From Escherichia coli (GTDB lineage Bacteria; Pseudomonadota; Gammaproteobacteria; Enterobacterales; Enterobacteriaceae): 64,000 bases of DNA. Below the pieces are notes generated by a model. That model saw only the letters and a list, made by a program, of their open reading frames with translations. It was not told the origin of the DNA and did no database searches. This document shows, in pieces, positions 1 to 27,891 of this stretch (positions within the stretch are counted from its first letter, which is position 1; each line of letters opens with the position of its first letter). The DNA is taken from NCBI RefSeq assembly GCF_036507355.1, contig NZ_AP027877.1; one strand, written 5' to 3'. A program made the position numbers and the translations under genes.

Positions 1-459
1 GTACTGACCGCTGAACAAGCCCTGAAATTAGTGGGTGAGATGTTTGTTTATCACATGCCATTTAACCGCGCATTGGGGATGGAACTGGAGCGTTACGAAA
101 AAGAGTTCGCACAGCTGGCCTTTAAAAATCAGCCAATGATGGTGGGCAACTGGGCGCAAAGCATTTTGCACGGCGGGGTCATTGCGTCGGCGCTGGATGT
201 CGCCGCCGGTCTGGTGTGCGTGGGAAGTACCTTAACCCGCCACGAAACCATCAGTGAAGATGAACTACGCCAGCGGCTATCGCGGATGGGGACCATTGAT
301 CTTCGCGTTGATTATCTGCGCCCAGGCAGGGGCGAGCGTTTTACTGCAACCAGTAGCCTGTTGCGTGCAGGCAATAAAGTCGCCGTCGCCCGCGTTGAAT
401 TACACAATGAAGAACAGCTTTATATTGCCAGTGCCACCGCCACCTATATGGTAGGTTGA
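1..459 (+). CDS. yigI: PaaI-type acyl-CoA thioesterase YigI; 5' end cut by window start (frame open back to nt 1)
   Basis: ORF 31..459 translation matches remembered YigI; no stop in frame between nt 1 and 31; synteny with rarD. Confidence 0.8.
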
Positions 460-510
460 AGACATAAAAGCAGGTAAACTGCTGTTACCAATTAAAAATG
501 AGTATTCCCG

Positions 511-1401
511 ATGGATGCAAAACAAACGCGGCAGGGCGTATTACTCGCTCTTGCCGCTTATTTTATTTGGGGTATAGCCCCAGCGTACTTCAAGTTGATT
601 TACTACGTGCCCGCCGATGAAATCCTGACGCATCGCGTGATCTGGTCGTTTTTCTTTATGGTGGTGCTGATGAGCATTTGCCGCCAGTGGTCCTATTTAA
701 AAACGCTGATTCAGACGCCACAGAAAATTTTTATGCTTGCAGTCTCTGCCGTGCTGATTGGTGGCAACTGGCTACTGTTTATCTGGGCGGTGAACAATCA
801 CCATATGCTGGAAGCGAGCCTTGGTTACTTTATTAACCCGCTGGTGAACATTGTGCTGGGGATGATTTTCCTCGGCGAGCGATTCCGCCGGATGCAATGG
901 CTGGCGGTGATTCTGGCGATATGTGGCGTGTTGGTTCAGCTGTGGACTTTTGGTTCACTGCCGATCATCGCGCTGGGACTGGCATTTAGTTTTGCCTTCT
1001 ACGGTCTGGTACGCAAGAAGATTGCCGTTGAAGCGCAAACCGGCATGTTAATCGAAACTATGTGGCTGCTGCCCGTGGCGGCAATTTACCTGTTTGCTAT
1101 TGCCGATAGCTCAACCAGCCATATGGGGCAAAACCCGATATCGCTGAATTTACTGCTGATCGCTGCCGGTATTGTCACTACCGTACCGCTGTTGTGTTTT
1201 ACTGCAGCTGCGACACGCCTGCGTCTCTCAACGTTAGGCTTTTTCCAGTACATTGGCCCGACGCTGATGTTCCTGCTGGCTGTGACGTTTTATGGTGAAA
1301 AACCGGGTGCCGATAAAATGGTGACTTTCGCCTTTATTTGGGTGGCGCTGGCAATTTTTGTGATGGATGCAATTTATACTCAACGTAGAACGTCCAAATA
1401 A
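511..1401 (+). CDS. rarD: RarD, EamA/DMT-family transporter
   Basis: 296-aa polytopic membrane ORF, expected length and synteny. Confidence 0.9.
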   Translation: MDAKQTRQGVLLALAAYFIWGIAPAYFKLIYYVPADEILTHRVIWSFFFMVVLMSICRQWSYLKTLIQTPQKIFMLAVSAVLIGGNWLLFIWAVNNHHMLEASLGYFINPLVNIVLGMIFLGERFRRMQWLAVILAICGVLVQLWTFGSLPIIALGLAFSFAFYGLVRKKIAVEAQTGMLIETMWLLPVAAIYLFAIADSSTSHMGQNPISLNLLLIAAGIVTTVPLLCFTAAATRLRLSTLGFFQYIGPTLMFLLAVTFYGEKPGADKMVTFAFIWVALAIFVMDAIYTQRRTSK

Positions 1402-1435
1402 AAAATAAATATATTCTGAAAAAATATGCCGACTC

Positions 1436-1813
1436 TTGCATGAGAGTGGGCATATTGCCATGCTGACAGGAGACTCACACAAGGATGTAAAATTTATGTT
1501 ACGTATGTTTATCCCAACATCTAACGGTAAGATTTCCAGACGCCGTTATATATTTTCATTTATTTTAATAAACTTCATTTTTGCCTTTCTTATTATCTTT
1601 TTTAACGATGGAGAAGCAGGTTTTCTTGTTATAGTCTCTACCATCTTACTCCATTATCTCGTCATCAATCTGAATTGCCAACGACTCCGTGATAGTGGTT
1701 TCGTCTATATAAAAACTTATGTTTTTGGTACATTAGCAGTATATATCATCTCTATCATCACAATGATAGCCGAAGATTTTGCCTGTTCAGGCAATGGTTC
1801 GATGATTTTTTAA
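1436..1813 (+). CDS. yigG: small inner-membrane protein, YigG-like
   Basis: 125-aa hydrophobic ORF in the expected position between rarD and yigF; start codon uncertain. Confidence 0.55.
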
Positions 1814-1888
1814 TTTGTTATTTTTCCACTTTCAGTATGCTAATGCTTGCACCTACTGATTCATCAAAACAATAGTTATGGAGTATTT

Positions 1889-2269
1889 ATGAGTAAGGAA
1901 TATATGAACGATGGTTCATTAAGTGAAAAATGGAAATACCGATTTAATTTTTATGATCAACATGGTTTTCCTGGATTCTGGGGGGCAACACCAGAATATA
2001 AAGCAGCATTTAAAGCATTAAAAGTAAGACAACGCTTAACTATTCAAATGAATTTCATTGCTTTCTTCTGTTCCTAGATATATTTATTTGTCCTGGGGTT
2101 ATGGAAAAAAGCAATTATAGTTCTATTACTTGGTATTCTATCTCTATTTGTTGGTGCACTAATTGGCGTTAACATTCTGGGTATTGCCGTAGCAGCCTAT
2201 GTTGCTGTTAACACGAACAAATGGTTCTATGAGAAAGAAGTAAAAGGGTTAAATACCTGGAGCCTTTGA
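1889..2269 (+). pseudogene. yigF: yigF (DUF2628 membrane protein) interrupted by in-frame TAG at 2075-2077
   Basis: Frame from MSKEY (1889) stops at TAG 2075-2077, then stays open in the same frame for 63 more codons to TGA 2267-2269; 62+1+63 = 126 codons, the length I recall for intact YigF. Confidence 0.6.
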
Positions 2270-2275
2270 ATAAGA

Positions 2276-2310
2276 GGTGGCTTAGCCAGGCTAAGCCACC
2301 GCCTTCTTTT
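2276..2310. terminator. hairpin (GGTGGCTTAGCC/GGCTAAGCCACC) plus T-run between convergent yigF and corA 3' remnant
   Basis: perfect inverted repeat followed by CTTCTTTTT on the + strand. Confidence 0.5.
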
Positions 2311-2446
2311 TACAACCAGTTCTTGCGCTTAAAGTACAGATACGGTGCCAGGCCCGCGAGGATCATAAAGATAATCGCGCCTGGGTAGCCGAAACTCCAC
2401 TTCAGTTCTGGCATAAACTCAAAGTTCATGCCATAGCTGGAGGCAA
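2310..2446 (-). pseudogene. detached corA 3'-terminal remnant (last 44 codons incl. GMN motif); left copy of a 137-bp imperfect direct repeat
   Basis: ORF 2310..2513 ends ...[44 protein letters not shown], identical in amino acids to the C-terminus of full corA at 4017..; upstream part of the ORF is unrelated or decayed. Confidence 0.7.
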
Positions 2447-2637
2447 TCCGCGTAGGAAAAAGTTTCCTAATCGGTAAATTCAACATATTGTTATTAACAA
2501 TGGGCAAAACCAATCAATAACGAGATTCCCTTCGGAATGTAATAAAAATGTGAAGTGTACTTCTTTTTTAAAATTTTTTATCCTAGCATTTGTTCTCAAA
2601 TTGATATTGAGCTTAAATATAACCAAGGAAAATGTAA

Positions 2638-3345
2638 ATGAATAACACATTACTTCCATCAATTAATATTCCCTGTACACTTTTCGAAACTATTAGTTTA
2701 TTTGATGATTATTCTGCTGATGATATGCAATATGGTGATATGGTAGAACAAGATTTTCTCTCACTCGGCCTAAGCGATATCTCAGCAAAAGTTGATCCTT
2801 ACAGACTTATTAAATACCATTTCCCTGGCCCAGGTTCTGTTAATGTTGTTTTTAGTGCCTCAAGTTCCGGAACAAAAATATCACAACGTGAATGCACTGA
2901 TATTTTATTTGCAGAAATGAAAGAACTAGCAAAAAATTTTTCCTTTTTTGGACAATATAAAACACTTATCGAAGATCTGATTGAACATTTTAGATATGGA
3001 AATGGCAGCAATTTTCATAGCCAACAATTAAATTTATCTTTTCATGAAAAGATAAATAAATATGGTTATAATAGTCCAATACGAATAATCAAAGAATGTA
3101 TCGAAAATGGCATTAATTCAACTCCCTCGACAGGATACCAACCTCTTATCCTGCAAAGCATTAAAACCAAATTACTTTCATCAAGACTAAATAAATTTAA
3201 TGACTTCGAGGACAGTTTTAATGGCTTAGGAATCAGTATTCATGATATTTCAGCTCAAAAAAATATCTCTTTTAAGCTTTCAAAAATACGCTATAGGGTG
3301 GAGTGCGACAATTCATTTTGTAGCACAGGACCACTTCGGTCTTGA
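2638..3345 (+). CDS. hypothetical protein, AT-rich cassette gene A; probably frameshifted, C-terminus may continue in +1 frame to 3487
   Basis: 235-aa ORF with AAGGA RBS ~8 nt upstream; ~30% GC; overlapping +1-frame ORF 3242..3487 ends in an ATGA overlap with gene B. Confidence 0.5.
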   Translation: MNNTLLPSINIPCTLFETISLFDDYSADDMQYGDMVEQDFLSLGLSDISAKVDPYRLIKYHFPGPGSVNVVFSASSSGTKISQRECTDILFAEMKELAKNFSFFGQYKTLIEDLIEHFRYGNGSNFHSQQLNLSFHEKINKYGYNSPIRIIKECIENGINSTPSTGYQPLILQSIKTKLLSSRLNKFNDFEDSFNGLGISIHDISAQKNISFKLSKIRYRVECDNSFCSTGPLRS

Positions 3346-3483
3346 TGTAACTGATATCAAAAACAAGACTTACAGCAAATATAGATTTTTTCGCATATGG
3401 TTCTTTTTACAACGGCATAAAGGCTTTGCTTTCAAACCTTTTTTCACCAATTTTAACACTATCGAAAGAATCGAAAATTATCT

Positions 3484-3975
3484 ATGAAAAGCAAACGCCA
3501 GAAAATTATATTATGTTTATTTCTTCTATGCTGTATCTATAATTTATGGACATTGCGTCCTGTACAGATTTTGTATACATACTCTGATGCTGGCAATTCA
3601 GTCTTTCTGGTCGTTGATCATCTGCCATGGACTGACAGCGATAAAATAAATTGGTATCTGAAGCATCAGAATGAAATTAAAAATCAACATCCCCTACCAG
3701 AAGGTAGTTGGCATACCTGGTATGTCATTGATATCGGTAATGGCTTCACTGACTATAAAAAATATATCGAAGGGCCGTATGAAGATCTCTACTGTTTCCC
3801 GACAATTAAGAGCAATGATAATTGCATCGTGAAAAATTACTTAATGGTTATTAATGAATACCCTTATCGTAACACTCATATTGGTATTAACGATTTTACT
3901 GAGTATCAATTAACACAAGAAAATAAAATAGAGCGAGTTTTCAATCCGCATGACTTTAAAAAAGACAATTTTTAG
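3484..3975 (+). CDS. small protein with N-terminal hydrophobic anchor/signal, cassette gene B
   Basis: 163-aa ORF, N-terminus KIILCLFLLCCIYNLW is hydrophobic; start overlaps upstream frame by ATGA; AT-rich. Confidence 0.55.
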   Translation: MKSKRQKIILCLFLLCCIYNLWTLRPVQILYTYSDAGNSVFLVVDHLPWTDSDKINWYLKHQNEIKNQHPLPEGSWHTWYVIDIGNGFTDYKKYIEGPYEDLYCFPTIKSNDNCIVKNYLMVINEYPYRNTHIGINDFTEYQLTQENKIERVFNPHDFKKDNF

Positions 3976-3980
3976 AAATA

Positions 3981-4010
3981 AGCCGGATAAAAAAATAGCT
4001 TTATCCGGCA
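3981..4010. repeat. REP-like palindromic hairpin (GCCGGATAAA...TTTATCCGGC) between cassette gene B and corA stop
   Basis: 10-bp inverted repeat seen directly; motif resembles E. coli REP units. Confidence 0.4.
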
Positions 4011-4016
4011 CTCATA

Positions 4017-4967
4017 TTACAACCAGTTCTTCCGCTTAAAGTACAGATACGGTGCCAGGCCCGCGAGGATCATAAAGATAATCGCGCCTGGGTAGCCGAA
4101 ACTCCACTTCAGTTCTGGCATAAACTCAAAGTTCATCCCGTAGCTGGAAGCAACCAGCGTTGGCGGCAGGAACACGACGGATACCACCGAGAAAATTTTG
4201 ATGATGCGGTTCTGCTCGATGTTGATAAAACCCATTGCCGCCTGCATCAGGAAGTTCACCTTCTGGAACAGGGATTCGTTATGCGGCAGCAGGGATTCGA
4301 TATCTCGCAGGATTTCACGCGCCTGCTCCAGTTGCCCACCCGGTAAGCGTGCTTTACGTACCAGGAAGTTGAGAGCGCGCTGGGTATCCATCAGACACAG
4401 GCGAACTTTCCAGCCGATATCTTCCAGTTCCGCCAGAGTGGAGAGCGCCTCGTCGTACTCATCGCCCTGATGCCCTTCCATAATCACCCGGCTCAATTGC
4501 TCCAGGTCGCTATAGATATTTTCAATTTCATCTGCCAACTGTTCGATTTTGGTTTCGAACAAATCCAGCAGCAACTCGTAGGCGTTACCGTCTACCATCG
4601 ACTGGCTACGGGCACGCATACGATATAGACGAAAAGCGGGCAGTTCACGCTCACGCAGAGTAAACAGACGACCATCACGGATGGTAAATGCCACAGTGGA
4701 GTTACCGGCGTGATCTTCCGCATCTTCAAAGAAGAAGAAGGAGTGAATATGCAGGCCGTCATCGTCTTCAAAGAAACGTGCCGATGCTTCGATGTCTTCC
4801 AGTTCCGGGCGGGTTGCCAGGCTCTGGCCAAGTTCAGATTGTACGCGCAGTCGCTCGTCGTCGTCCGGTTCGACAAGATCAATCCATACTGCATTTACAA
4901 GGGGTTGTGACTCTTCGACTTCCAGCCGGGTCAGTCGGTTATTTTCCAGTTGAAATGCGCTCAGCAT
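4017..4967 (-). CDS. corA: Mg2+/Co2+ transporter CorA
   Basis: ORF 4017..4982; native start [10 protein letters not shown] gives 316 aa; GMN motif and two C-terminal TM segments present. Confidence 0.95.
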
Positions 4968-5336
4968 GACCGGGACTCCCAATGCTTAAAATATCGGACA
5001 GTTCGGTGGGCACACAGAAACAAATTGGGTTTCAGACCATTAAACAGCCTGACTCAGCGCGACGGGAAAAATTGAGGTCGCTGACAACCGCTAAGGCTAT
5101 CAGCAAAAAGGGATAGCCTTAGGAGTTGATCCTGGATGACAGGATAGTGAGCCAGTATCTACTGGGTGTGTCCAAGGCGAATGTCCTCTTAGAGTGATCG
5201 TGCGCGCATGTTACGCCAGCAAAATTTTGCCGTCAACACGCAACAGAACACCACAGAACAATAGTTGAACTTCGCGCTTTTTGGTACTCGTCAAGGTCGC
5301 TAACAGGATAAAAAAATCCCACATCCAGGACCTATA

Positions 5337-6101
5337 ATGGCGCATCGGCTACTCATTGGTAAAGGAATGATCACCTTGAATCTCAAACGGATTTTTCTCG
5401 CCCTCACCTTACTTCCCTTGTTTGTTGTTGCCGCTGATGATTGCGCACTCTCAGATCCGACGCTGACCGTACAGGCGTATACCGTTAATCCTCAAACAGA
5501 GCGGGTGAAAATGTACTGGCAAAAAGCCAATGGCGAAGCGTGGGGAACTTTACATGCTCTGCTGGCGGATATGAATAGTCAGGGTCAGGTGCAGATGGCG
5601 ATGAACGGCGGCATCTATGATGAAAGCTATACGCCGCTCGGTTTGTACATCGAAAACGGTCAGCAGAAGGTGGCGTTAAATCTCGCTTCAGGTGAAGGGA
5701 ATTTCTTTATCCGTCCTGGCGGCGTGTTTTATGTCGCGGGAGATAAAGTCGGCATCGTTCGTCTGGATGCCTTCAAAACCAGTAAAGAGATTCAGTTTGC
5801 GGTGCAGTCAGGGCCAATGTTGATGGAAAACAGTGTAATTAATCCGCGTATTCATCCCAACGTCGCCTCACGTAAAATTCGTAACGGTGTTGGGATTAAT
5901 AAACATGGGAATGCCGTGTTTTTGTTGAGCCAGCAGGCGACAAATTTTTATGATTTTGCCTGTTATGCCAAAGCGAAACTGAACGTTGAGCAGCTGCTTT
6001 ATCTTGATGGCACGATTTCACATATGTATATGAAAGGCGGGGCAATCCCGTGGCAACGCTATCCTTTTGTCACCATGATTTCCGTCGAGCGGAAAGGTTA
6101 A
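5337..6101 (+). CDS. yigE: DUF2233-family protein YigE
   Basis: 254-aa ORF with signal-like N-terminus; expected position between corA and uvrD. Confidence 0.8.
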   Translation: MAHRLLIGKGMITLNLKRIFLALTLLPLFVVAADDCALSDPTLTVQAYTVNPQTERVKMYWQKANGEAWGTLHALLADMNSQGQVQMAMNGGIYDESYTPLGLYIENGQQKVALNLASGEGNFFIRPGGVFYVAGDKVGIVRLDAFKTSKEIQFAVQSGPMLMENSVINPRIHPNVASRKIRNGVGINKHGNAVFLLSQQATNFYDFACYAKAKLNVEQLLYLDGTISHMYMKGGAIPWQRYPFVTMISVERKG

Positions 6102-6183
6102 GCATTGTACACTCGAGGAGGCCAGACAAACTGGGGCTGGCTACACAGCTGGAAAATCATCAGATAAATGAAGGGAAACAAAA

Positions 6184-7086
6184 ATGAAAAAAACGCTCGC
6201 AACGTTATTTTTATTAACGTGTCTGGGATCATCATCCGCTTATGCGGATAACGCTTTGATTTTACAAACGGATTTTAGCCTGAAAGATGGCGCCGTCTCG
6301 GCGATGAAAGGGGTCGCATTCGGTGTTGACCATAATCTTAAAATATTTGATTTAACACACGAAATTCCACCGTATAACATCTGGGAAGGCGCATACCGCC
6401 TGTATCAGACCGCCAGCTACTGGCCGCAAGGTTCGGTGTTTGTCAGCGTGGTCGATCCGGGCGTGGGGACTGACCGTAAATCGGTGGTGCTGAAAACCAA
6501 AAACGGTCAATACTTCGTTTCACCGGATAACGGTACGCTCACTTTGGTGGCGCAATCGCTGGGTATTGAGAGCGTCCGGCAAATCGATGAAAAAACCAAC
6601 CGCCTGAACGGTTCCGAAAAGTCATATACCTTCCACGGTCGTGATGTGTATGCCTACACCGGTGCGCGTCTGGCTTCCGGGGCGATCACGTTCGAACAGG
6701 TGGGGCCAGAGCTTCCTGCAAAAGTTGTCGAACTGCCTTATCAGAAAGCCAAAGCAACAAAAGGTGAAGTAAAGGGCAATATCCCGATTCTCGATATTCA
6801 GTACGGCAACGTCTGGAGCAATATCAGCGACGAGTTGCTGAATCAGGCAGGAATCAAACTCAACGATACGTTATGTGTGACCATTTCCGAAGGTTCCGAG
6901 AAAAAATACGAAGGGAAAATGCCGTATGTCGCCAGCTTCGGCGATGTGCCGGAAGGACAGCCGATGGTGTATCTGAACAGCTTATTGAATGTTTCCGTGG
7001 CGCTGAATATGGATAATTTCGCGCAGAAACATCAGGTTGCGTCTGGTGCTGACTGGAATATTGATGTGAAGAAATGTGATAAGTAA
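6184..7086 (+). CDS. secreted S-adenosyl-L-methionine hydroxide adenosyltransferase family protein (DUF62 / fluorinase-chlorinase-like fold)
   Basis: 300-aa ORF; N-terminal signal peptide MKKTLATLFLLTCLGSSSAYA; family-typical motifs ILQTDFS..DGAVSAMKGV and DLTHEIPPYN. Confidence 0.7.
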   Translation: MKKTLATLFLLTCLGSSSAYADNALILQTDFSLKDGAVSAMKGVAFGVDHNLKIFDLTHEIPPYNIWEGAYRLYQTASYWPQGSVFVSVVDPGVGTDRKSVVLKTKNGQYFVSPDNGTLTLVAQSLGIESVRQIDEKTNRLNGSEKSYTFHGRDVYAYTGARLASGAITFEQVGPELPAKVVELPYQKAKATKGEVKGNIPILDIQYGNVWSNISDELLNQAGIKLNDTLCVTISEGSEKKYEGKMPYVASFGDVPEGQPMVYLNSLLNVSVALNMDNFAQKHQVASGADWNIDVKKCDK

Positions 7087-7130
7087 GGTGCTGATGCCGG
7101 ATGCGGTGTGGCGCACCGCATCCCGCAACG

Positions 7131-9293
7131 TTATACCGTCTCCAGCCGGGCGTATGCCGCCACCAGCCATTTAATACCCTGGCCCTGGAATGCCACCTGC
7201 AAACGGCTATGCTCGCCGCTGCCTTCCATATTGACGATAGTGCCTTCACCAAACTTAGCGTGGCGTACACGCTGGCCGAGCTTGTAGCCGCTGTCGTTCT
7301 CGACCATCGGCGTACCCATACGCTGATGGCTGACCGGGCGGCTTACCGTGGCGCGCAGGCGCACCTCTTCCACACACTCTTCCGGCAACTCACCGATAAA
7401 GCGCGACGGGCGATGGTAAACCTCTTTGCCATACAGACGGCGAGTTTCCGCGTAGGTCAGCGTCAGTTTCTGCATCGCGCGGGTTACGCCAACGTAGGCC
7501 AGACGGCGTTCTTCTTCCAGACGACCGCCTTCATCCAGCGACATCTGGCTTGGGAACATGCCCTCTTCCATACCGACGATAAACACCTGCGGGAACTCCA
7601 GCCCTTTCGCCGAGTGTAGCGTCATCAACTGCACCGCGTCCTGCCAGGTATCCGCCTGCCCCTCGCCCGCTTCCAGCGCCGCATGGGAGAGGAATGCCTG
7701 CAGCGGCATTAAATCTTCGTCTTCTTCGTTGTAGCTGAACTGGCGCGTTGCCGTCACCAGTTCCTCCAGGTTTTCGATACGCGTCTGACCTTTTTCGCCC
7801 TTCTCCTGCTCGTACATGGTGCGCAGGCCGGAGTCTTTAATTACCCGGTCAGTCTGTACATGCAGCGGCATATCGGCAGTTTCCTGCGCTAAGGCGTCGA
7901 TCAGTTCCATAAACCGCTGTAAGGCGCTGGCAGCACGTCCGGCGAGGGCTTTTTCCTGCAACAGTTCACGACATGCCTGCCAGAGTGTTAACTGGCGATC
8001 GCGCGATGTCTGACGTACCACGTCCAGCGTCCGGTCACCAATACCCCGCGTTGGCGTATTCACCACACGCTCAAAGGCCGCGTCGTCGTTGCGGTTGGCA
8101 ATCAGGCGCAGATACGAGAGCGCATCTTTGATTTCCTGGCGTTCGAAGAAGCGCATCCCGCCGTAAATACGGTACGGCATACTGGCCTGCAATAACGCCT
8201 CTTCGAGCACCCGCGACTGGGCGTTGCTGCGGTAGAGAATGGCGCACTCGGCAAGCGCTCCGCCGTTGTCCTGCCAGGTTTTGATGCGGTTAACCACAAA
8301 ACGCGCTTCATCGAGTTCGTTAAAAGCGCAATAGAGGGAAATAGGCTCACCGTCCGCGCCATCGGTCCACAGTTTTTTACCCAGACGCCCGTTATTGTTT
8401 TCAATCAGGGCGTTAGCGGCGCTCAGAATATTGCTGGTAGAGCGGTAGTTTTGCTCCAGACGAATAGTTTCAGCACCGGGGAAATCATTGAGGAAACGCT
8501 GAATATTCTCTACCTGCGCCCCGCGCCAGCCGTAGATTGACTGGTCGTCATCACCGACGATCATCACTTTGCCGGTGTCGCCCGCCAGCAGGCGGATCCA
8601 CGCGTACTGAATGTTGTTGGTATCCTGGAATTCGTCCACCAGGATATTGGTAAAACGTTCGCGGTAGTGTTGCAGGATATGCGGCTTGTTAAGCCACAGT
8701 TCGTGGGCGCGCAGCAGCAGCTCGGCGAAATCCACCAGACCCGCGCGGTCACACGCTTCCTGATACGCCTGATACACCTTCTGCCAGGTCTGCTCCACCG
8801 GATTACCGTAGCTTTGAATATGATGCGGACGTAAGCCTTCATCTTTCTGGCTGTTGATGTACCACATTGCCTGGCGCGGCGGCCACTGCTTCTCGTCGAG
8901 GTTCATCGCCTTGATCAAACGCTTAAGCAGGCGCAGCTGGTCTTCACTGTCGAGGATCTGGAAATCCTGCGGCAGATTGGCGTCCATATGGTGCGCACGC
9001 AGCAGGCGGTGCGCCAGCCCGTGGAAGGTGCCTACCCACATGCCGCCCTGGCTGGTGCCCATCAGTTGCCCGATACGATGACGCATTTCCGCCGCCGCTT
9101 TGTTGGTAAACGTCATCGCCATAATCGAGTATGGCGAGCAGTTTTCCACGCTCATCAGCCAGGCGATACGATGCACCAGTACGCGCGTCTTACCACTGCC
9201 CGCGCCCGCCAGCACCAGAAGGTTGCTGCGTGGCGCGGCCACCGCTTCGCGCTGTTTGTCATTAAGGCTGTCGAGCAGGTAAGAAACGTCCAT
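7131..9293 (-). CDS. uvrD: DNA helicase II UvrD
   Basis: ORF 7131..9482 contains MDVSYLLDSLNDKQREAV start (ATG at 9293) and Walker A GAGSGKT; 720 aa. Confidence 0.95.
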   Translation of the reverse strand: MDVSYLLDSLNDKQREAVAAPRSNLLVLAGAGSGKTRVLVHRIAWLMSVENCSPYSIMAMTFTNKAAAEMRHRIGQLMGTSQGGMWVGTFHGLAHRLLRAHHMDANLPQDFQILDSEDQLRLLKRLIKAMNLDEKQWPPRQAMWYINSQKDEGLRPHHIQSYGNPVEQTWQKVYQAYQEACDRAGLVDFAELLLRAHELWLNKPHILQHYRERFTNILVDEFQDTNNIQYAWIRLLAGDTGKVMIVGDDDQSIYGWRGAQVENIQRFLNDFPGAETIRLEQNYRSTSNILSAANALIENNNGRLGKKLWTDGADGEPISLYCAFNELDEARFVVNRIKTWQDNGGALAECAILYRSNAQSRVLEEALLQASMPYRIYGGMRFFERQEIKDALSYLRLIANRNDDAAFERVVNTPTRGIGDRTLDVVRQTSRDRQLTLWQACRELLQEKALAGRAASALQRFMELIDALAQETADMPLHVQTDRVIKDSGLRTMYEQEKGEKGQTRIENLEELVTATRQFSYNEEDEDLMPLQAFLSHAALEAGEGQADTWQDAVQLMTLHSAKGLEFPQVFIVGMEEGMFPSQMSLDEGGRLEEERRLAYVGVTRAMQKLTLTYAETRRLYGKEVYHRPSRFIGELPEECVEEVRLRATVSRPVSHQRMGTPMVENDSGYKLGQRVRHAKFGEGTIVNMEGSGEHSRLQVAFQGQGIKWLVAAYARLETV

Positions 9294-12754: not shown

Positions 12755-12942
12755 TATGGATTGCCTGTAAAGTTCATCGCTTTCTGCTTTCTATCATCGC
12801 AGGAGAAGGCGTAAAAGCAAGCGTTTAGCGACTCTTTATGAAGTCTGAAAAGTGAGGAAATGCTGCGAGTATAACGCTTACTCGTGGGGATTTATGTTTT
12901 GCTGGTAGTTTCGTGATCGGCACCTCGCGCCAGGATGGCTTT

Positions 12943-14421
12943 ATGCACTATCGCAATGTGGTTTGTTTGTTGGCTTGTTCGTTGTTTTTATCGTCGGCAT
13001 GGGGATGTCGGCTTTCCGCACCTGAACATAATATTTACCAGAAACAGGGAAAAGGCGTGGTGTACCTGCGCCCTTATAAAGAAACAAATCTTTCTCTACC
13101 TGACGTGAATTACAAGAGTTTGCGTCGGTTACCCAATTTATTAATAGACCCGACAACACTAGACGAATGGGATAAAGAACCGCCTCAGACTGATTTGACA
13201 ACCGACTACCTCTATGAGGGCGCACAGGCCTGGTATCCTCATTATTCCTGGTATAGCGATGGTCGCAATATCCTCTACGCGGGTGAAGTTGTGCAAAACC
13301 CTCCCGGCACACCTCCCGTCGATGTCGCCTCGTTCAAGGCATGGGGTGATTTTGCTGCAGATAAACACAGTCTCTATTTTGAAGGCAAGCGCACCGATGA
13401 CAATGGTGGGAGAAATAGCTTAGATATCAAAACGCTGCATCAGGTGGAATTCCGGCCTCCCTGGGCTCCTGACTTACTGGGGCTGATATTACGTGACGCT
13501 AATTTCTTGTATATCAATGGGCATCGCCTCGCTGACCCCGAGAGTTTCCGTGTGCTGGCGCAGAAGTCCTGGGATCAGCGAGGAAAGTTTTCCACCACGT
13601 TTAACCCCTGCGTTGCCGTACCATTCGGCCCCTGGGATACCCTGGCTCGTACACGGACCAAAATCCTGATCAACGGCGAACAGCTTGATGCCGACCCGGA
13701 CACCTTTTCCGTCGTGCGCTGGATGCCCGGCTCACTCTTGACCTGGCGTGATAAAAACGGGCTACAGCGTAAAGTCCTCGACAAGGAAAATCTGGCGTGG
13801 GATGAGGATTTAACAAAGCACTGTCTGGATTTTTCTCTGCTGGAAAAGAAAGTGTTCTGGCGTCAGGGGCCTGACTGTAAACAGGAAGAATTACCGGGAC
13901 TCGATCCGGAACAGTTTCACCCCATCAGTGATGCTGTCGCACAGTATCAGGACTCGCTTTATACCATCATCGAAACAGAGTCTGGTGACCGCAAGCTGGA
14001 GATCGTGAAACTTGATGATCCCAATCTTATTATCAACAAACGTTTCAACGCCGGGAAACGCCACGGCTATTTACTTACGCGTGCCGAAGGGTGGCCATAC
14101 CATTCCGGTTTACACGTGTTTGAATCTGACGGACCGCTGATCTTACTGGATAACCGCTCTCCGGATGAACGCGAAGCCCATCTTAATGACCATCCCTTTT
14201 TGCGCAGATGGTATGCCCGCGATAACCGCTACGTTTACAGCTTTGATGGCGCGCAGCTCTGGCGATACCGCACCGCGGATCCGAAACAAGTTCGCTTAAT
14301 CTGGAAGGAACAACATTCGGGATATGGCTACGGGGTAAATTACAAAACGGGATATCTGGACGGAAAAATTACCGATGACGGCGAATTTATTCCTGCCCCG
14401 CGCAATGAGGCGACAAAATGA
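12943..14421 (+). CDS. secreted repeat protein, paralog A (DKNYY-like repeats); accessory
   Basis: ORF 12913..14421; ATG at 12943 with AGGA upstream; hydrophobic N-terminus; motifs DKHSLYF, DANFLYI, DNRYVYSF; strong similarity to downstream paralog. Confidence 0.6.
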   Translation: MHYRNVVCLLACSLFLSSAWGCRLSAPEHNIYQKQGKGVVYLRPYKETNLSLPDVNYKSLRRLPNLLIDPTTLDEWDKEPPQTDLTTDYLYEGAQAWYPHYSWYSDGRNILYAGEVVQNPPGTPPVDVASFKAWGDFAADKHSLYFEGKRTDDNGGRNSLDIKTLHQVEFRPPWAPDLLGLILRDANFLYINGHRLADPESFRVLAQKSWDQRGKFSTTFNPCVAVPFGPWDTLARTRTKILINGEQLDADPDTFSVVRWMPGSLLTWRDKNGLQRKVLDKENLAWDEDLTKHCLDFSLLEKKVFWRQGPDCKQEELPGLDPEQFHPISDAVAQYQDSLYTIIETESGDRKLEIVKLDDPNLIINKRFNAGKRHGYLLTRAEGWPYHSGLHVFESDGPLILLDNRSPDEREAHLNDHPFLRRWYARDNRYVYSFDGAQLWRYRTADPKQVRLIWKEQHSGYGYGVNYKTGYLDGKITDDGEFIPAPRNEATK

Positions 14422-15743
14422 ATGGTCAAATAATCACTGTTGCACTCATCCTGTTGGGGCACATATTTCTGACGCCTGCTGTACAGGCCATAGGGTTCGA
14501 CTATTACAATGATCACGGTGTTATGTCTTACGGTAAAGGTTATGGGGAGGATGAGAAAATCATTGCCCAATTTCCGAAGATGAACAGAGCCGATTTGCGC
14601 CTTGTGACAAATATATCCGGGGAGCGGGAGTTAGTGGAAGGCTATATACCCACCGATGAAATAAGCATAAAAAATGAGGAATACCACTGGGTGACAGACG
14701 GCCGCGTTATTCTCTGGCGTGGCAAAATCGTTAGCAATCCACCGGGAACACCCACTGTCGATATTGCCAGCTTTCAGGCTATGGGCCGCTTCGCGGTCGA
14801 TAAATATAGCCTCTATTTTGATGGACAGCGCACCGAAAGTAATAGCGGCGCGTCACGTGTTGATCTGGCGACACTAAAAGCTATCGAAGGTAACTCTACC
14901 ACGCTGGTGGATAGTAAAAATCTCTATTTGTCCGGTCGACGTCAGGGGAGCAGCAGTAATGTTACTGTATTAGAAAAAAGATGGTGGGGTATTAATCCAC
15001 GTCTTATGAGTGTAAACAGAAATTTGTATTCCAATGATCTGCTTATCCGCAGTGGGCAGAATATTTATTTAAATGCCGTTCACCTTACAGCGAATGCAGA
15101 CTCATTTGAGATAATTCGCTGGATATCTCATTCACTGCTGGTTTTTCGCGACAATAAGGGTCTGCATCGTTATCCCTTTGGGCAATTGTCTGGCAAAGCG
15201 ATACCCGTAGATGATGACGTCTCTTTTGAAGTAGGGGAAAGTCGCGTTCGCTGGCGTAAACAGCTCACGCCCGACCGTCAGTGGAGCAAGTGGATAGACC
15301 TACCAGGTATTGAACCTGAACAATTTCATCTGATTACTGGCAATATTGCGCAATATAAAGATCGGTTGTATGTAACAAAATTATCGACATTTGGTGAAGA
15401 CCAGCTTGAGATAATCCCGCTGGATACGCCAGACCTGGTCATTGATCACTCATTTAATAGCGGCAAACAGCATGCTTATTTTATCCGCCAATTACGGTCA
15501 AAGAGCGTGCAAATTATTCCAGTTAACGGTCCGCTAACTAAAAACGATCGCTTCGCTTATGACGATCGCAATGTTTATACATGGACCGATACAGAGGTAA
15601 GGATTACACCCTCCCCCTGCCCGGCGAAAACACGCGTCAGAGAAGAGAATGTGCGCGAACTTCACAACAGAGACATTATTATTCCGTTGACGGATGAATC
15701 ATGCCGTAACGCAGCCGCAGAGGTGCAAACTTTGAAGCCCTGA
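14418..15743 (+). CDS. secreted repeat protein, paralog B (DKNYY-like repeats); accessory
   Basis: 441-aa ORF; signal peptide ending AVQA; ATGA overlap with paralog A; shared blocks NPPGTP.VD.ASF and EPEQFH..IAQY.D.LY. Confidence 0.6.
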   Translation: MNGQIITVALILLGHIFLTPAVQAIGFDYYNDHGVMSYGKGYGEDEKIIAQFPKMNRADLRLVTNISGERELVEGYIPTDEISIKNEEYHWVTDGRVILWRGKIVSNPPGTPTVDIASFQAMGRFAVDKYSLYFDGQRTESNSGASRVDLATLKAIEGNSTTLVDSKNLYLSGRRQGSSSNVTVLEKRWWGINPRLMSVNRNLYSNDLLIRSGQNIYLNAVHLTANADSFEIIRWISHSLLVFRDNKGLHRYPFGQLSGKAIPVDDDVSFEVGESRVRWRKQLTPDRQWSKWIDLPGIEPEQFHLITGNIAQYKDRLYVTKLSTFGEDQLEIIPLDTPDLVIDHSFNSGKQHAYFIRQLRSKSVQIIPVNGPLTKNDRFAYDDRNVYTWTDTEVRITPSPCPAKTRVREENVRELHNRDIIIPLTDESCRNAAAEVQTLKP

Positions 15744-26822: not shown

Positions 26823-27891
26823 GCTGAATTTACAATCCAAGTGCAACAAAAAAAGAAGTACTCATCAACTAGAATATAATTTTGTTTCCACACAAAAACC
26901 ACTTCCAAATGATGAGTACTTCCTACCGACATCTTACAATAAACGAGCGAGAAAAGATAATGATTTTACTCGCACAGGGCAAAAAACAAGCAGAAATTGC
27001 CAAAGCACTGGGACGTAGCTCCAGCACCATTTCTCGCGAGCTGAAACGACACGCTCTAGAAAGCTACAGTGCAACGAACGCACAAAACAGCTATTTGAAG
27101 CATCGTCAAAATAGCAAAGCACAGCGCAAATTAGAGCAGCCTGAATATTTCAATTTGGTGCAAGAAAAGTTTCTGACAGAAAACTGGTCGCCCGAACAAA
27201 TCAGCGCACGATTAAAATTGGAAAAATCTGAATTATCCATTAGTTATTCAACCATTTATCGTGGTATTTATTCAGGGTTGTTTGATATAGGCGAACGCAA
27301 AGCCAGTCGCAAACTGCGCCACAAAGGCAAAACACGGCATACAAAAAATCATCATGAAAAACGTGGCAAAATTCAGATATCCAACCATTTGAACGACCGT
27401 CCCATTTCGGCGCAAAATCGCAGTCGCTTTGGACATTGGGAAGCCGATACCGTACTGGGTAAAGCGGGTGGAGCTTGTTTGCTGACGCTGACGGAACGCA
27501 AAAGTCGTTTTGAGTTGGTGAAGAAAATTCCTGCCAAAAAAGCCGAAGCAGTCCAAAAAGCCATGATTGAATTGCTGGATTCACATATATTGCGGTCAAT
27601 TACGCCAGACCGTGGTAAAGAATTTGCCCAACATCGTTTGGTAACAGAAGCACTGGGTGTAGAATTTTACTTCCCCGAGCCGCATCAACCGTGGACACGG
27701 GGAACGAATGAAAATACAAATGGGTTACTTCGTGAATACTTTCCGAAGCACCAAGACATCAATCAGTGGAGCGAAGTTGATATTCAACAGGTGATCAATA
27801 AACTGAATTTACGACCACGTAAATGTTTAGGTTGGAAAACACCTTATGAAGTTTACTTCAAAAAATCGTTGCACTTGGTTTGACAATTCAA
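26823..27891 (+). mobile_element. IS30-family insertion sequence (ISApl1-like), ~1.07 kb, imperfect ~24-bp terminal inverted repeats, 2-3 bp target duplication (GAG/AG)
   Basis: Left end GCTGAATTTACAATCCAAGTGCAAC; right end (reverse complement) TTGAATTGTCAAACCAAGTGCAAC; GAG flanks both ends; flanks rejoin into continuous aslB; ends +/-2 bp. Confidence 0.8.
26882..27883 (+). CDS. IS30-family DDE transposase
   Basis: 333-aa ORF with N-terminal HTH (LAQGKKQAEIAKALGRSSSTISRELKRH) and C-terminal DDE region (HWEADTV...TPDRGKEF...TRGTNENTNGLLREYFPK); 307 aa if started at the internal Met. Confidence 0.85.
   Translation: MFPHKNHFQMMSTSYRHLTINEREKIMILLAQGKKQAEIAKALGRSSSTISRELKRHALESYSATNAQNSYLKHRQNSKAQRKLEQPEYFNLVQEKFLTENWSPEQISARLKLEKSELSISYSTIYRGIYSGLFDIGERKASRKLRHKGKTRHTKNHHEKRGKIQISNHLNDRPISAQNRSRFGHWEADTVLGKAGGACLLTLTERKSRFELVKKIPAKKAEAVQKAMIELLDSHILRSITPDRGKEFAQHRLVTEALGVEFYFPEPHQPWTRGTNENTNGLLREYFPKHQDINQWSEVDIQQVINKLNLRPRKCLGWKTPYEVYFKKSLHLV

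Follow-up and report, generated by a model that had tools for sequence, protein, structure and literature searches.

The AT-rich cassette at the 3′ end of corA in the 64,000-nt stretch of Escherichia coli DNA analysed here (the window) is an orphan antibacterial effector–immunity module of the DUF3289/DUF943 type, a kind of system already known. It was probably inserted by ordinary recombination that used the corA end as a homology arm, with no site-specific integrase.

The terminal ~147 nt of corA are present twice in direct orientation, at 2310–2456 and 4017–4163, a repeat length far above chance expectation. A repeat search aligned 2305–2456 with 4012–4163 (152 nt, 94% identity, spacing 1707). 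The 137-nt direct repeat of the corA end and its stop that the earlier note had described aligned as stated, with four differing sites (2325/4032, 2430/4137, 2433/4140, and 2442/4149), and the final 45 codons plus stop are translated identically from both copies. Beyond these 137 nt, the similarity weakens up to 2456/4163 (positions 2447, 2449, and 2454 are mismatched) and is gone from 2457. The claim that the differences are all synonymous held inside the window but not in general, as among the distinct substitutions in 27 remnant copies, 13 were synonymous and 18 non-synonymous, with stops both gained and lost.

The right copy (4017–4163) is the end of the functional corA (4017–4967, − strand), whose 316-aa product is identical to that of WP_000947159-type loci. 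Its 3′ haplotype is that of XJ34, an empty-site strain; the cassette-attached end is therefore ordinary E. coli sequence, and no distinct “element-supplied” replacement end, as had been proposed, is recognisable. The left copy (2310–2456, − strand) is a detached corA′ remnant comprising the stop codon and the last ~147 nt, which PGAP labels as a partial CorA pseudogene in relatives. As noticed earlier, it adjoins the native bidirectional yigF/corA terminator, a hairpin at 2276–2300 that has an 11-bp stem, a T-tract on each strand, and a folding energy of −21 to −22 kcal/mol (z about −4). In empty-site genomes, e.g., K-12, this hairpin lies directly next to the full corA. A second hairpin at 3982–4009, REP-like (GCCGGATAA...TTATCCGGC) and common to the DUF943 gene and corA, is terminator-like on the − strand, serving corA (−15.5 kcal/mol, z −4.3 to −5.2).

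The DNA bracketed by the two copies measured 1.56 kb at ~31% GC, in line with the AT-rich insert of ~1.6 kb first noted; its GC content is 0.25–0.40 in 200-nt windows vs. ~0.50 in corA and rarD. It begins at a putative illegitimate joint between the corA′ end and the cassette start (2447–2464), a microhomology patch that possibly contains the tip of a donor rarD. An upstream non-coding region follows (2457–2637, + strand), a putative promoter/operator that from 2474 onward has homology in the deletion derivatives described below (type III E. coli). No strong sigma-70 consensus was found in this region, while the motif TTTATCCTAGCATTTGTT (2577–2594) recurs 5′ of the effector gene in the distant contig L027. 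The two co-oriented + strand genes opposite corA, and their ATGA overlap at 3484–3487, were found as described before.

The first of these genes (2638–3487) belongs to the DUF3289/YPO3983 (TIGR03034) family, and the window copy is a pseudogene member, because a frameshift truncates it at 235 aa and removes the invariant Q230–F272 block. In detail, a 235-aa ORF (2638–3345) is carried on in another frame by the ORF 3242–3487, whose TGA and the ATG that starts the second gene overlap. At 3257–3263, the window has A7 in place of the A6 of intact 282-aa alleles, resulting in a +1 frameshift and a stop at 3343–3345. This explains the length of 235–283 aa given in the earlier note, which had overlooked the frameshift. 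In other respects the assembly looked sound, as ~40 core CDS were free of frameshifts. The window ORF matched Pfam PF11692 (DUF3289, E 2e-52) over model positions 2–200 of 272 only, while the intact O145 allele, with 98–99% identical DNA, matched TIGR03034 over profile positions 1–274 of 274, with 438 bits against a cutoff of 156. The invariant family motifs, QDHFGxD...D...RIW..LQ(RH), sit in the lost C-terminus. This segment is also the part matching the solved DUF3289 domains, as 9jdi and 9jg8 (“DUF3289 family protein”) matched query residues ~185–272 in a profile search of PDB sequences (E 2e-12). The toxin gene is dead in this genome, having lost its conserved and putatively catalytic C-terminal region. 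[quoted passage not shown] The effector has no hydrophobic segment above 1.2 on the Kyte–Doolittle scale.

The second gene (3484–3975, + strand) is an intact DUF943 immunity gene encoding 163 aa, which matched Pfam PF06092 with E 4e-27 over model positions 1–150 of 151. The N-terminal membrane anchor seen at first reading corresponds to a single hydrophobic segment at residues ~8–26 (Kyte–Doolittle 1.79, an N-terminal TM helix), and the AF2 model (pLDDT 87) has a helix at 2–24 and then a beta-rich domain. In a Foldseek search, this model resembled no solved structure, and no solved immunity protein was among its PDB matches. The exact 163-aa protein was found on 17 contigs in public data, and the effector plus DUF943 pairing was kept in 17/17 loci from other genomes. 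The profile searches and structure predictions proposed earlier as a check thus identified both proteins and a fold shared with a solved T6SS effector domain, and the DUF3289/DUF943 pairing, loosely suggested in the earlier note, proved exactly right by the Pfam and TIGR03034 matches.

The distribution of the cassette was surveyed in 5,426 complete E. coli genomes. About half of them (2,757) carry it. The empty site (yigF-terminator-corA), reconstructed from the window as had been suggested, was found in 2,717 genomes, the K-12 lineage included; the arrangement is not fixed in all genomes, and the cassette is accessory, being polymorphic for presence and absence. The remnant-plus-cassette junction is present in 1,709 genomes, and 931 have the junction of a deletion derivative (type III, 1583|2474; a ~890-bp deletion with 1-nt microhomology). 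The inner junction was identical in 27/27 remnant copies read, 23 of which are on metagenome contigs. In BAP1 and L004, the repeat copies have visibly undergone gene conversion with each other, and cassette alleles diverge by up to 12–17% in parts, above their flanks. No tandem or excised/circle joint occurred in the 5,426 genomes. One E. coli-like contig showing such a joint was dismissed as chimeric. In the plasmid collection, no plasmid-borne or phage-like whole cassette was found: the two full-length matches were chromosomal-looking records of 1.0 Mb and 4.8 Mb, and the other 51 were 98-nt fragments.

On the left of the cassette lies the resident cargo of the rarD–corA slot, yigG and yigF, both on the + strand. 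Compared with K-12 and L025, yigG (1496–1813; NCBIfam NF008474, E 2.5e-61) has lost 1 nt from a T-run at ~1806, and its ORF ends at 105 aa instead of 126. In yigF (DUF2628, 1889–2269), TGG is changed to TAG at 2075–2077 (G>A at 2076) compared with K-12, and the 126-aa product otherwise agrees fully with K-12. Both genes are pseudogenes in the window, which the earlier note had overlooked.

Related loci outside the E. coli arrangement carry the pair in other contexts. In Salmonella enterica subsp. arizonae and diarizonae, it directly abuts rarD on one side and an intact corA on the other, and contig L027, from a more distant enterobacterium, has the order rarD-E-I-corA (E, effector; I, immunity gene), in both cases with no duplication. 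Contig L028 has an independent corA′ (267 nt)|′rarD (213 nt) joint. In the fadH–lsrK slot of Enterobacter and Trabulsiella, lsrK′ remnants of 133 nt (L009) and 58 nt (L015) lie beside E-I modules, and orphan immunity gene arrays occur in Lelliottia (L008) and Trabulsiella (L015).

We consider it likely that the E. coli arrangement arose long ago in one homology-anchored illegitimate (or Campbell/tandem-duplication-type) event, which brought in the orphan module. The route that recombination took and the direction of this event are both inferred, as follows. rarD and corA, core genes in convergent orientation, enclose a slot for variable cargo, in which the module sits, and the order rarD-yigG-yigF-corA′|E-I-corA would have originated once, by recombination between a segment “(rarD tip)-E-I-corA...” and the rarD-yigG-yigF-corA allele already in place. 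One side may have been resolved by homologous exchange within corA, and the other by joining at microhomology, 147 nt inside the corA already present. Homology-facilitated illegitimate recombination, unequal exchange yielding a heterologous tandem duplication, or Campbell-type insertion of a corA-fragment circle are possible routes. Any of them would leave corA intact, strand the old corA end beside the old cargo and stack two alternative cargo alleles, with an integrase unneeded. The ~890-bp deletion (type III), repeat gene conversion, exchange of divergent E-I alleles, and pseudogenisation would be later steps.

Each of the two parental types is found, as E. coli has rarD-yigGF-corA, and Salmonella and L027 have rarD-E-I-corA. 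Exactly at the joint, GCGTAGGAAAAAGTT (2450–2464) matches the O145/O157-type rarD 3′ end GCGTA-GAAAAAGTT, and rarD (GCAGCGT) and corA (CCAGCGT) have CAGCGT in common there. The rarD-tip match is only 15 nt long and was noticed post hoc, and its local alignment score of 23 was reached in 24/500 shuffles. The predicted donor, with rarD fused directly to the cassette tip, was absent from the 5,426 E. coli genomes and the metagenome contigs. The identical junction everywhere is also expected from recurrent site-specific insertion and counts against the single-event explanation. As to direction, the repeat SNPs are uninformative on whether E-I was added to yigGF or yigGF-corA′ to E-I.

A reverse history, in which the remnant arrangement is ancestral and the empty sites are precise RecA deletions between the 147-nt repeats, with no insertion within the species, is doubtful but the best placed of the alternatives. 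The repeats do recombine, as the gene conversion in BAP1 and L004 demonstrates, and the allele divergence above the flanks suggests age. Besides sharing the corA 3′ haplotype of the functional copy in the window, the XJ34 empty site is 98.8% identical over the yigF-corA region to the empty-site query built from the window sequence. However, K-12-type empty sites are without the remnant-specific substitutions at +16 and +133, and yigG-yigF without the cassette is presumably also the arrangement of Salmonella enterica subsp. enterica. Moreover, such a history merely moves the joint-forming event to an earlier ancestor, and one making of the joint is still required.

Site-specific integration with att duplication, as the earlier note had read the locus, appears improbable. 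The cassette would then be a miniature element (an islet or CIME-like remnant) targeting the corA 3′ end, with the replacement end as attP and its integrase acting in trans or lost. Such an element would be consistent with the direct repeats around the insert and the intact corA, features that together with empty sites are shared by tyrosine-integrase islands at gene 3′ ends, and also with the roughly 50:50 presence/absence at precise empty sites, the junction identical in every copy read, and a single short contig (L028) in which a related unit is circular or in tandem. Against it, no integrase or recombinase ORF was found in 2457–4016 or the flanks, nor in the PGAP annotations of five relatives, which agrees with the earlier remark that no integrase is present, and no recombinase lies in or near the cassette at any locus examined. 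Furthermore, the Salmonella and L027 pairs abut a complete corA without duplication, the breakpoints vary among independent cases (corA′ 147 vs. 267 nt; lsrK′ 133 vs. 58 nt), and the 147-nt repeat fades through a microhomology patch with no sharp core, all unlike tyrosine-integrase islands. The lack of tandem or excised forms in the 5,426 genomes and of a plasmid-borne or phage-like whole cassette also speaks against this reading.

The homology-anchored event preferred here has a likeness in the sequential displacement of T6SS effector–immunity modules. In Vibrio cholerae auxiliary clusters and orphan rhs/cdi tips, a new module is acquired by recombination at a conserved homology region, and the older cargo is pushed outward with a truncated homology region, resulting in orphan immunity arrays. 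Similarly, the module here would be installed beside a homology arm with the old cargo displaced, and immunity arrays are seen in L008 and L015. In contrast, the homology region in those systems is part of the effector or of a T6SS gene, while here the duplicated arm comes from a housekeeping gene's 3′ end (corA; lsrK elsewhere), unrelated to the module, and the displaced cargo in E. coli is yigG-yigF instead of an older E-I pair.

The toxin/immunity character suggested at first reading of the pair is borne out by the two profile matches together with published toxicity and neutralisation. DUF3289 is toxic in the periplasm, where it causes cell rounding, and is neutralised by DUF943; it is described as a colicin M homologue, and a colicin-M-like attack on lipid II was proposed (PMC11148199). 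An orphan DUF3289 effector is delivered and kills in a T6SS-dependent manner, and its own immunity gene rescues (PMC12135965). By analogy with these homologues, the intact 282-aa E. coli protein would be a signal-less soluble toxin that is delivered by T6SS and acts on the cell wall of the target cell in the periplasm, while the DUF943 protein would be anchored in the inner membrane by its one N-terminal helix and neutralise the cognate toxin in the periplasm.

Comparison with the characterised systems showed both likenesses and differences. T6EC1/T6IC1 of Yersinia pseudotuberculosis are of the same Pfam families, with the immunity gene directly downstream and a DUF943 protein of N-terminal TM anchor plus periplasmic body, but T6EC1 is a PAAR fusion encoded within a T6SS operon (PMC11148199), and the E. 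coli protein consists of the bare 282-aa domain. The Aeromonas jandaei orphan effector is standalone and away from T6SS genes, like the E. coli module, but its immunity protein has 95 aa and three TM segments and is not DUF943 (PMC12135965). BtpeA-CTD/BtpiA of Bacteroides fragilis (9jdi, 9jg8) is the top structural and the sole sequence-detectable solved relative, but the two effector domains are 18% identical, BtpeA-CTD is the C-terminus of a much larger spike-associated effector, and BtpiA was not among the Foldseek matches of the DUF943 model. Unlike the published effectors, the effector copy in the window is frameshifted.

A T6SS-independent bacteriocin of the colicin M type, in which a ~280-aa protein is released and imported by a receptor/TonB route with DUF943 in the role of Cmi, has a slim chance of being the right description. 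The Cmi immunity protein has an N-terminal anchor and a periplasmic domain, and the DUF943 protein parallels it in both; the module was also always orphan and distant from T6SS genes in the enterobacterial loci seen. The ColM catalytic motif, DxYDx5HR, is not evident in the effector, whose family invariant is QDHFGxD...D...RIW..LQ(RH). The likeness to colicin M/PaeM extends to the effector size and the proposed periplasmic attack on a peptidoglycan precursor, and agrees with the description as a colicin M homologue (PMC11148199), but the fold similarity to PaeM is below significance, and Cmi was absent from the PDB matches of the DUF943 model. The analysis found neither evidence of receptor binding or a TonB box nor a colicin plasmid, an SOS box, an SOS-type colicin operon organisation, or a lysis gene. 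The best structural match is rather the T6SS effector domain 9jdi, and homologues occur fused to PAAR within T6SS operons (PMC11148199), and an orphan one is T6SS-secreted with T6SS-dependent killing (PMC12135965).

An intracellular toxin–antitoxin or abortive-infection (anti-phage) module kept as an addiction or defence cassette, which the compact, AT-rich, ATGA-coupled two-gene unit and its patchy distribution might suggest, is very improbable, as neither protein matched a PADLOC defence model, the homologous toxin is harmful only in the periplasm and its antidote is membrane-anchored and periplasmic (PMC11148199), and the window has lost the toxin yet keeps the antidote, the opposite of what addiction predicts.

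For the antibacterial effector–immunity module favoured here, no T6SS genes were found near the cassette or near any orphan locus examined. Its neighbours are rarD, yigG, yigF, corA, and yigE, and the protein carries no delivery fusion; in other genera, orphan homologues are flanked by fadH and lsrK, by an MCP gene and fbp, or by an autotransporter gene and rluF, or lie beside argS. The BL21 derivative BAP1, one of the strains commonly regarded as T6SS-less, keeps an intact effector–immunity pair; delivery by T6SS in E. coli is therefore unproven. In the window, the frameshift ends the translational coupling of the two genes, so that DUF943 expression may drop and an immunity role here is uncertain. 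Since the toxin gene is dead and the immunity gene alone remains, the most that the locus may offer in this genome is protection against relatives that still make the toxin.

A repeat search of the window, an E. coli chromosome segment with the gene order yigI-rarD-yigG-yigF-...-corA-yigE-uvrD, found a single long direct repeat, 2305–2456 vs. 4012–4163, of 152 nt with 94% identity and a spacing of 1707 nt. The right copy forms the end of the complete 316-codon corA, and the left copy, a corA remnant, is placed after the hairpin at 2276–2300 that is the common terminator of yigF and corA in K-12-type genomes. Base by base, the two copies differ at 2325, 2430, 2433, and 2442, with three more mismatches at 2447, 2449, and 2454 and unrelated sequence from 2457 on, and the last 45 corA codons plus the stop have an identical translation in both. 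The interval 2457–4016 has a GC content of 25–40% vs. ~50% in the flanks and encodes two plus-strand genes, the stop and start of which overlap as ATGA at 3484–3487. Repeat search, base-by-base comparison, GC content and ORFs therefore bear out the earlier note, which had described a duplicated corA end flanking an AT-rich two-gene insert.

The upstream gene matched Pfam DUF3289 (E 2e-52) over model positions 2–200 of 272 only, and the downstream gene matched DUF943 end to end (E 4e-27), so the previously proposed pairing of these two families was correct. In an alignment with two relatives, the DUF3289 gene carries A7 at 3257–3263 vs. A6 in intact alleles, and the resulting +1 frameshift shortens the product from 282 to 235 aa. 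Intact alleles include O157 WP_001066403 and O145 WP_001066389. Without the frameshift, the protein belongs over its full length to the NCBIfam TIGR03034 ‘YPO3983 family’ (438 bits vs. a cutoff of 156). The C-terminus lost by the frameshift holds the invariant block of the family, Q230-D231-H232-F233-G234-x-D236...D239...R252-I253-W254...L257-Q258, and two solved ‘DUF3289 family protein’ chains, 9jdi and 9jg8, match this same segment. The toxin gene of the window strain is therefore dead, and its immunity gene is intact. The exact 235-aa product occurs once in public data (BED24473.1, on a 4.64-Mb E. coli chromosome), and the exact DUF943 protein on 17 contigs.

Two neighboring genes (1496–2269) are also inactivated, yigG by the loss of 1 nt from a T-run at ~1806 and yigF by a TGG>TAG change at 2076, giving three lesions within 2 kb of accessory DNA vs. 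~40 intact core CDS. As these ~40 core CDS, spanning ~50 kb, show zero frameshifts against a collinear reference, assembly errors are unlikely and the lesions in the effector, yigG, and yigF look real. Further decayed effector alleles exist in E. coli (P0034/P0035 and P0039); one decayed form has an internal ~35-aa deletion (247–249 aa), and another, with 1,301 cluster members, is 234 aa long and stops inside the QDHF motif, so that effector erosion appears recurrent in the species. The window represents the expected end state of such modules, in which the toxin is lost and the immunity gene is kept.

The AlphaFold model of the intact effector allele (pLDDT 77) matched BtpeA-CTD (9jdi; Foldseek E 4.8e-11), a Bacteroides fragilis T6SS effector domain solved with its immunity protein; the next match, the colicin-M-like bacteriocin PaeM, was not significant (E 0.057, TM 0.27). 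The DUF943 protein has a single N-terminal hydrophobic helix (residues 8–26) followed by a beta-rich domain (model pLDDT 87), and sequence and fold searches found no significant relative of it among solved structures. Neither cassette protein matched a PADLOC defence (anti-phage) model. A PAAR-DUF3289 protein encoded in a T6SS operon of Yersinia pseudotuberculosis was toxic to E. coli only when targeted to the periplasm, caused cell rounding, and was neutralised by the adjoining DUF943 protein, and a colicin-M-like action was proposed for it by the authors (PMC11148199). An orphan DUF3289 protein of Aeromonas jandaei was found in the T6SS-dependent secretome, and prey deleted for the effector-immunity pair was killed in a T6SS-dependent, immunity-reversible manner (PMC12135965); the window locus resembles this example in being an orphan with respect to T6SS genes. 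The DUF3289-DUF943 linkage is also found in Klebsiella (PMC12469244). The structure match and the published homologues thus confirm the effector/immunity reading made earlier from the gene architecture: the cassette genes belong to a published, already characterised effector-immunity family, of which the window effector is a pseudogene member and DUF943 an orphan immunity gene. The host of the Yersinia toxicity assay was BL21 (PMC11148199), and that DUF3289 is toxic there, although the BL21 lineage (derivative BAP1) has its own DUF943, suggests that the immunity is allele-specific or poorly expressed.

The distribution of the cassette was then counted in 5,426 complete RefSeq E. coli genomes. 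Some form of it is carried by 2,757 genomes (near full length in 2,631), while 2,717, including the K-12 lineage, have the empty site yigF-terminator-corA (type I). The remnant-cassette junction of the window (type II) is present in 1,709, among them O157:H7, O145, O111, and BAP1, and a cassette without remnant (type III) in 931. The type III junction links rarD plus the initial ~88 nt of yigG to window position 2474 with 1-nt microhomology. Because this piece of yigG is retained and window 2457–2473 is absent, the type III order, rarD-effector-immunity-corA, was rejected as the ancestral E. coli state, and it looks like either a derivative of type II that lost ~890 bp or the product of an illegitimate event of its own. 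Compared with each other, the cassettes of the window and of type III are mosaics, with ~83% identity over most of the effector, 96–98% over its 3′ end and the initial two-thirds of the immunity gene, ~85% at the 3′ end of the latter, and 97% or more in corA.

The inner junction was the same in 27/27 remnant copies read, from six genome or MAG loci and 21 of 23 metagenome contigs (two did not extend far enough to the left). These copies hold 13 synonymous and 18 non-synonymous distinct substitutions, including stop-gain and stop-loss changes, indicating that the remnant is a decaying scar and not a selected peptide; a conserved peptide was accordingly rejected. The remnant variants +6 G and +16 G of BAP1 and a further locus (L004) recur in the functional corA copy, showing gene conversion between the repeats.

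To the left of the remnant, some strains (O157, O145) have an unrelated ~1 kb replacing yigG-yigF. In O145 RM9872 (L001 2884–3863; the same in an O157 locus), this segment between rarD and the remnant carries a 91-aa minus-strand ORF and a 128-aa plus-strand ORF, weakly YigG-like, both small membrane proteins, and the rarD 3′ end differs as well (…QRRKS* vs. …QRRTSK*). Window 1–8000 has a best identity of only 98.3% among the 5,426 genomes, and the cassette is closest (99.4%) to O145 strains, the left cargo of which differs; the window strain thus has an O145-like cassette allele alongside yigG-yigF. A gene of the SAM hydrolase/halogenase family (300 aa; 6184–7086), located between yigE and uvrD, is absent from K-12 and present in all cassette-bearing loci sampled as well as in the empty-site strain AREA_487. 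Further along the window, lptM and cyaY are separated by two intact ORFs of the DKNYY family, of 502 and 441 aa (12913–15743), where the closest complete E. coli reference has only a 180-nt pseudogene stub, a 2.5-kb presence/absence difference, and an IS30-like transposase (333 aa; 26882–27883) inserted at the aslB 5′ end is absent from the same reference.

In Salmonella enterica subsp. arizonae and diarizonae, the effector-immunity pair (amino-acid identity 65% for the effector and 63% for the immunity protein) is flanked by rarD and a full-length corA, and the locus has neither a duplication nor yigG/yigF. Subsp. houtenae and salamae also have named homologues. A distant enterobacterial contig (L027; rarD 77% nt identity) has the same duplication-free layout. 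These loci indicate that the cassette adjoining corA is a normal chromosomal allele of the rarD-corA slot. A related 2.2-kb metagenome contig with overlapping ends (L028, 1–2194) reads effector, immunity, and 267 nt of corA′ joined to 213 nt of ′rarD, followed again by effector and immunity; it is a circular or tandemly duplicated rarD-corA cargo unit from a relative of the L027 organism, and its joint is independent, of the tandem-duplication or circle type, with breakpoints unlike those of the window. The same scar architecture as E. coli corA′ occurs in the fadH-lsrK slot, where lsrK 3′ remnants of 133 nt (88%; Enterobacter asburiae, L009 7400–7591) and 58 nt (86%; Trabulsiella guamensis, L015 9003–9060) separate DUF3289-DUF943 modules from the core gene or the next module. 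In Lelliottia, three DUF943 genes stand in tandem, with a 41-nt remnant of an effector end ahead of each.

The earlier note had attributed the duplication to site-specific integration at the corA 3′ end. The invariant inner junction is also compatible with that mechanism, but it is not supported, as no recombinase gene was found in any locus examined (window and relatives), the pair sits beside an undamaged corA in the Salmonella subspecies and L027, and independent joints fall at other breakpoints (corA′ 267 nt in L028; lsrK′ 133 and 58 nt). Moreover, the window joint fades through a patch of microhomology between corA (CCAGCGT) and the rarD 3′ end (GCAGCGT), and the 15 nt past this patch, GCGTAGGAAAAAGTT, match the O157/O145-type rarD terminus GCGTA-GAAAAAGTT(AA). 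Shuffling gave p about 0.05 for the score of this match alone, but the match is precisely placed, with the joint at one side and the rarD stop at the other. The absence of a recombinase, the duplication-free loci, the variable independent joints, and the rarD-like microhomology joint together favour a single old homology-anchored event, in either direction. In such an event, a ‘(rarD tip)-effector-immunity-corA’ segment would have recombined with a resident rarD-yigG-yigF-corA allele, on one side through homologous exchange in corA and on the other through an illegitimate joint located 147 nt inside the resident corA. Equivalent outcomes would follow from unequal exchange or from a circle with a corA fragment that inserted by the Campbell route, and by any of these routes the duplication would be a by-product of the homology arm.

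The predicted donor, rarD fused directly to the cassette tip, was found in 0/5,426 E. coli genomes with a chimeric query, and its degenerate pattern CARCGTAGRAAAAAGTTTCCTAA had no match in metagenome contigs; the cassette left-end 21-mer occurs in 23 such contigs, all with the usual corA′ joint. Similarity in the Salmonella rarD-effector intergenic alignment was too low to define the original left end of the cassette. The four differences within the repeated corA end were rejected as the mark of a foreign, element-supplied end, because the haplotype of the functional copy is ordinary E. coli, being identical in the empty-site strain XJ34, and K-12 carries a minority allele. No tandem or excised cassette form was found in the E. 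coli genomes searched; one candidate contig (L050) was rejected as chimeric, its first 823 nt looking LINE-like and having no E. coli match, and its joint probably reflects assembly through the repeat. Among plasmid records, only two matched the cassette at full length, both of megabase size and chromosomal-looking; the other 51 matches were a 98-nt fragment attached to a captured corA on IncHI1 plasmids. These plasmids (R27, pHCM1, and ~50 others, from Salmonella and E. coli) carry E. coli corA, ysgD, and the last 98 nt of the DUF943 cassette (window 3919–4016; R27 87328–88584) at 99% identity, indicating a chromosomal fragment captured from a cassette-bearing strain.

A tentative extension, which we consider rather doubtful, is a general, integrase-free route by which Enterobacteriaceae would acquire and stack DUF3289-DUF943 modules, and possibly orphan effector-immunity pairs of other kinds. 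The portable homology arm would be the 3′ end of the convergent housekeeping gene next to the module, corA for Escherichia and lsrK for Enterobacter and Trabulsiella, and would travel with it. With every new arrival, older cargo would be displaced outward behind a truncated gene-end ‘scar’, and through the direct repeats the newest module could be excised or amplified, as hinted by the circular or tandem unit of L028. Under this scheme, the slot between rarD and corA would have held cargo for a long time and across species, and yigG/yigF and the O157-type small membrane proteins may be alternative, possibly immunity-like, cargo. Sequential displacement of T6SS modules is known in Vibrio, and also for orphan rhs/cdi tips. 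Their stacking-with-scar architecture resembles that of the E. coli locus, in which, unlike those systems, the duplicated arm is a housekeeping gene 3′ end.

The locus is an ordinary, very widespread accessory module of already known function, and its installation without an integrase is probably of a general kind. No published description of the corA-linked E. coli locus was found in the DUF3289/DUF943/YPO3983 literature. About half of E. coli genomes, including O157:H7, O145, O111, and the B/BL21 lineage, have the pair, which places it among the commonest orphan effector-immunity loci in the species. For annotation pipelines, it warns against taking a directly repeated gene 3′ end to prove that an island was driven by an integrase, and it illustrates cleanly, in nature, how modules can be gained and stacked in a cargo slot between convergent core genes without a dedicated recombinase.
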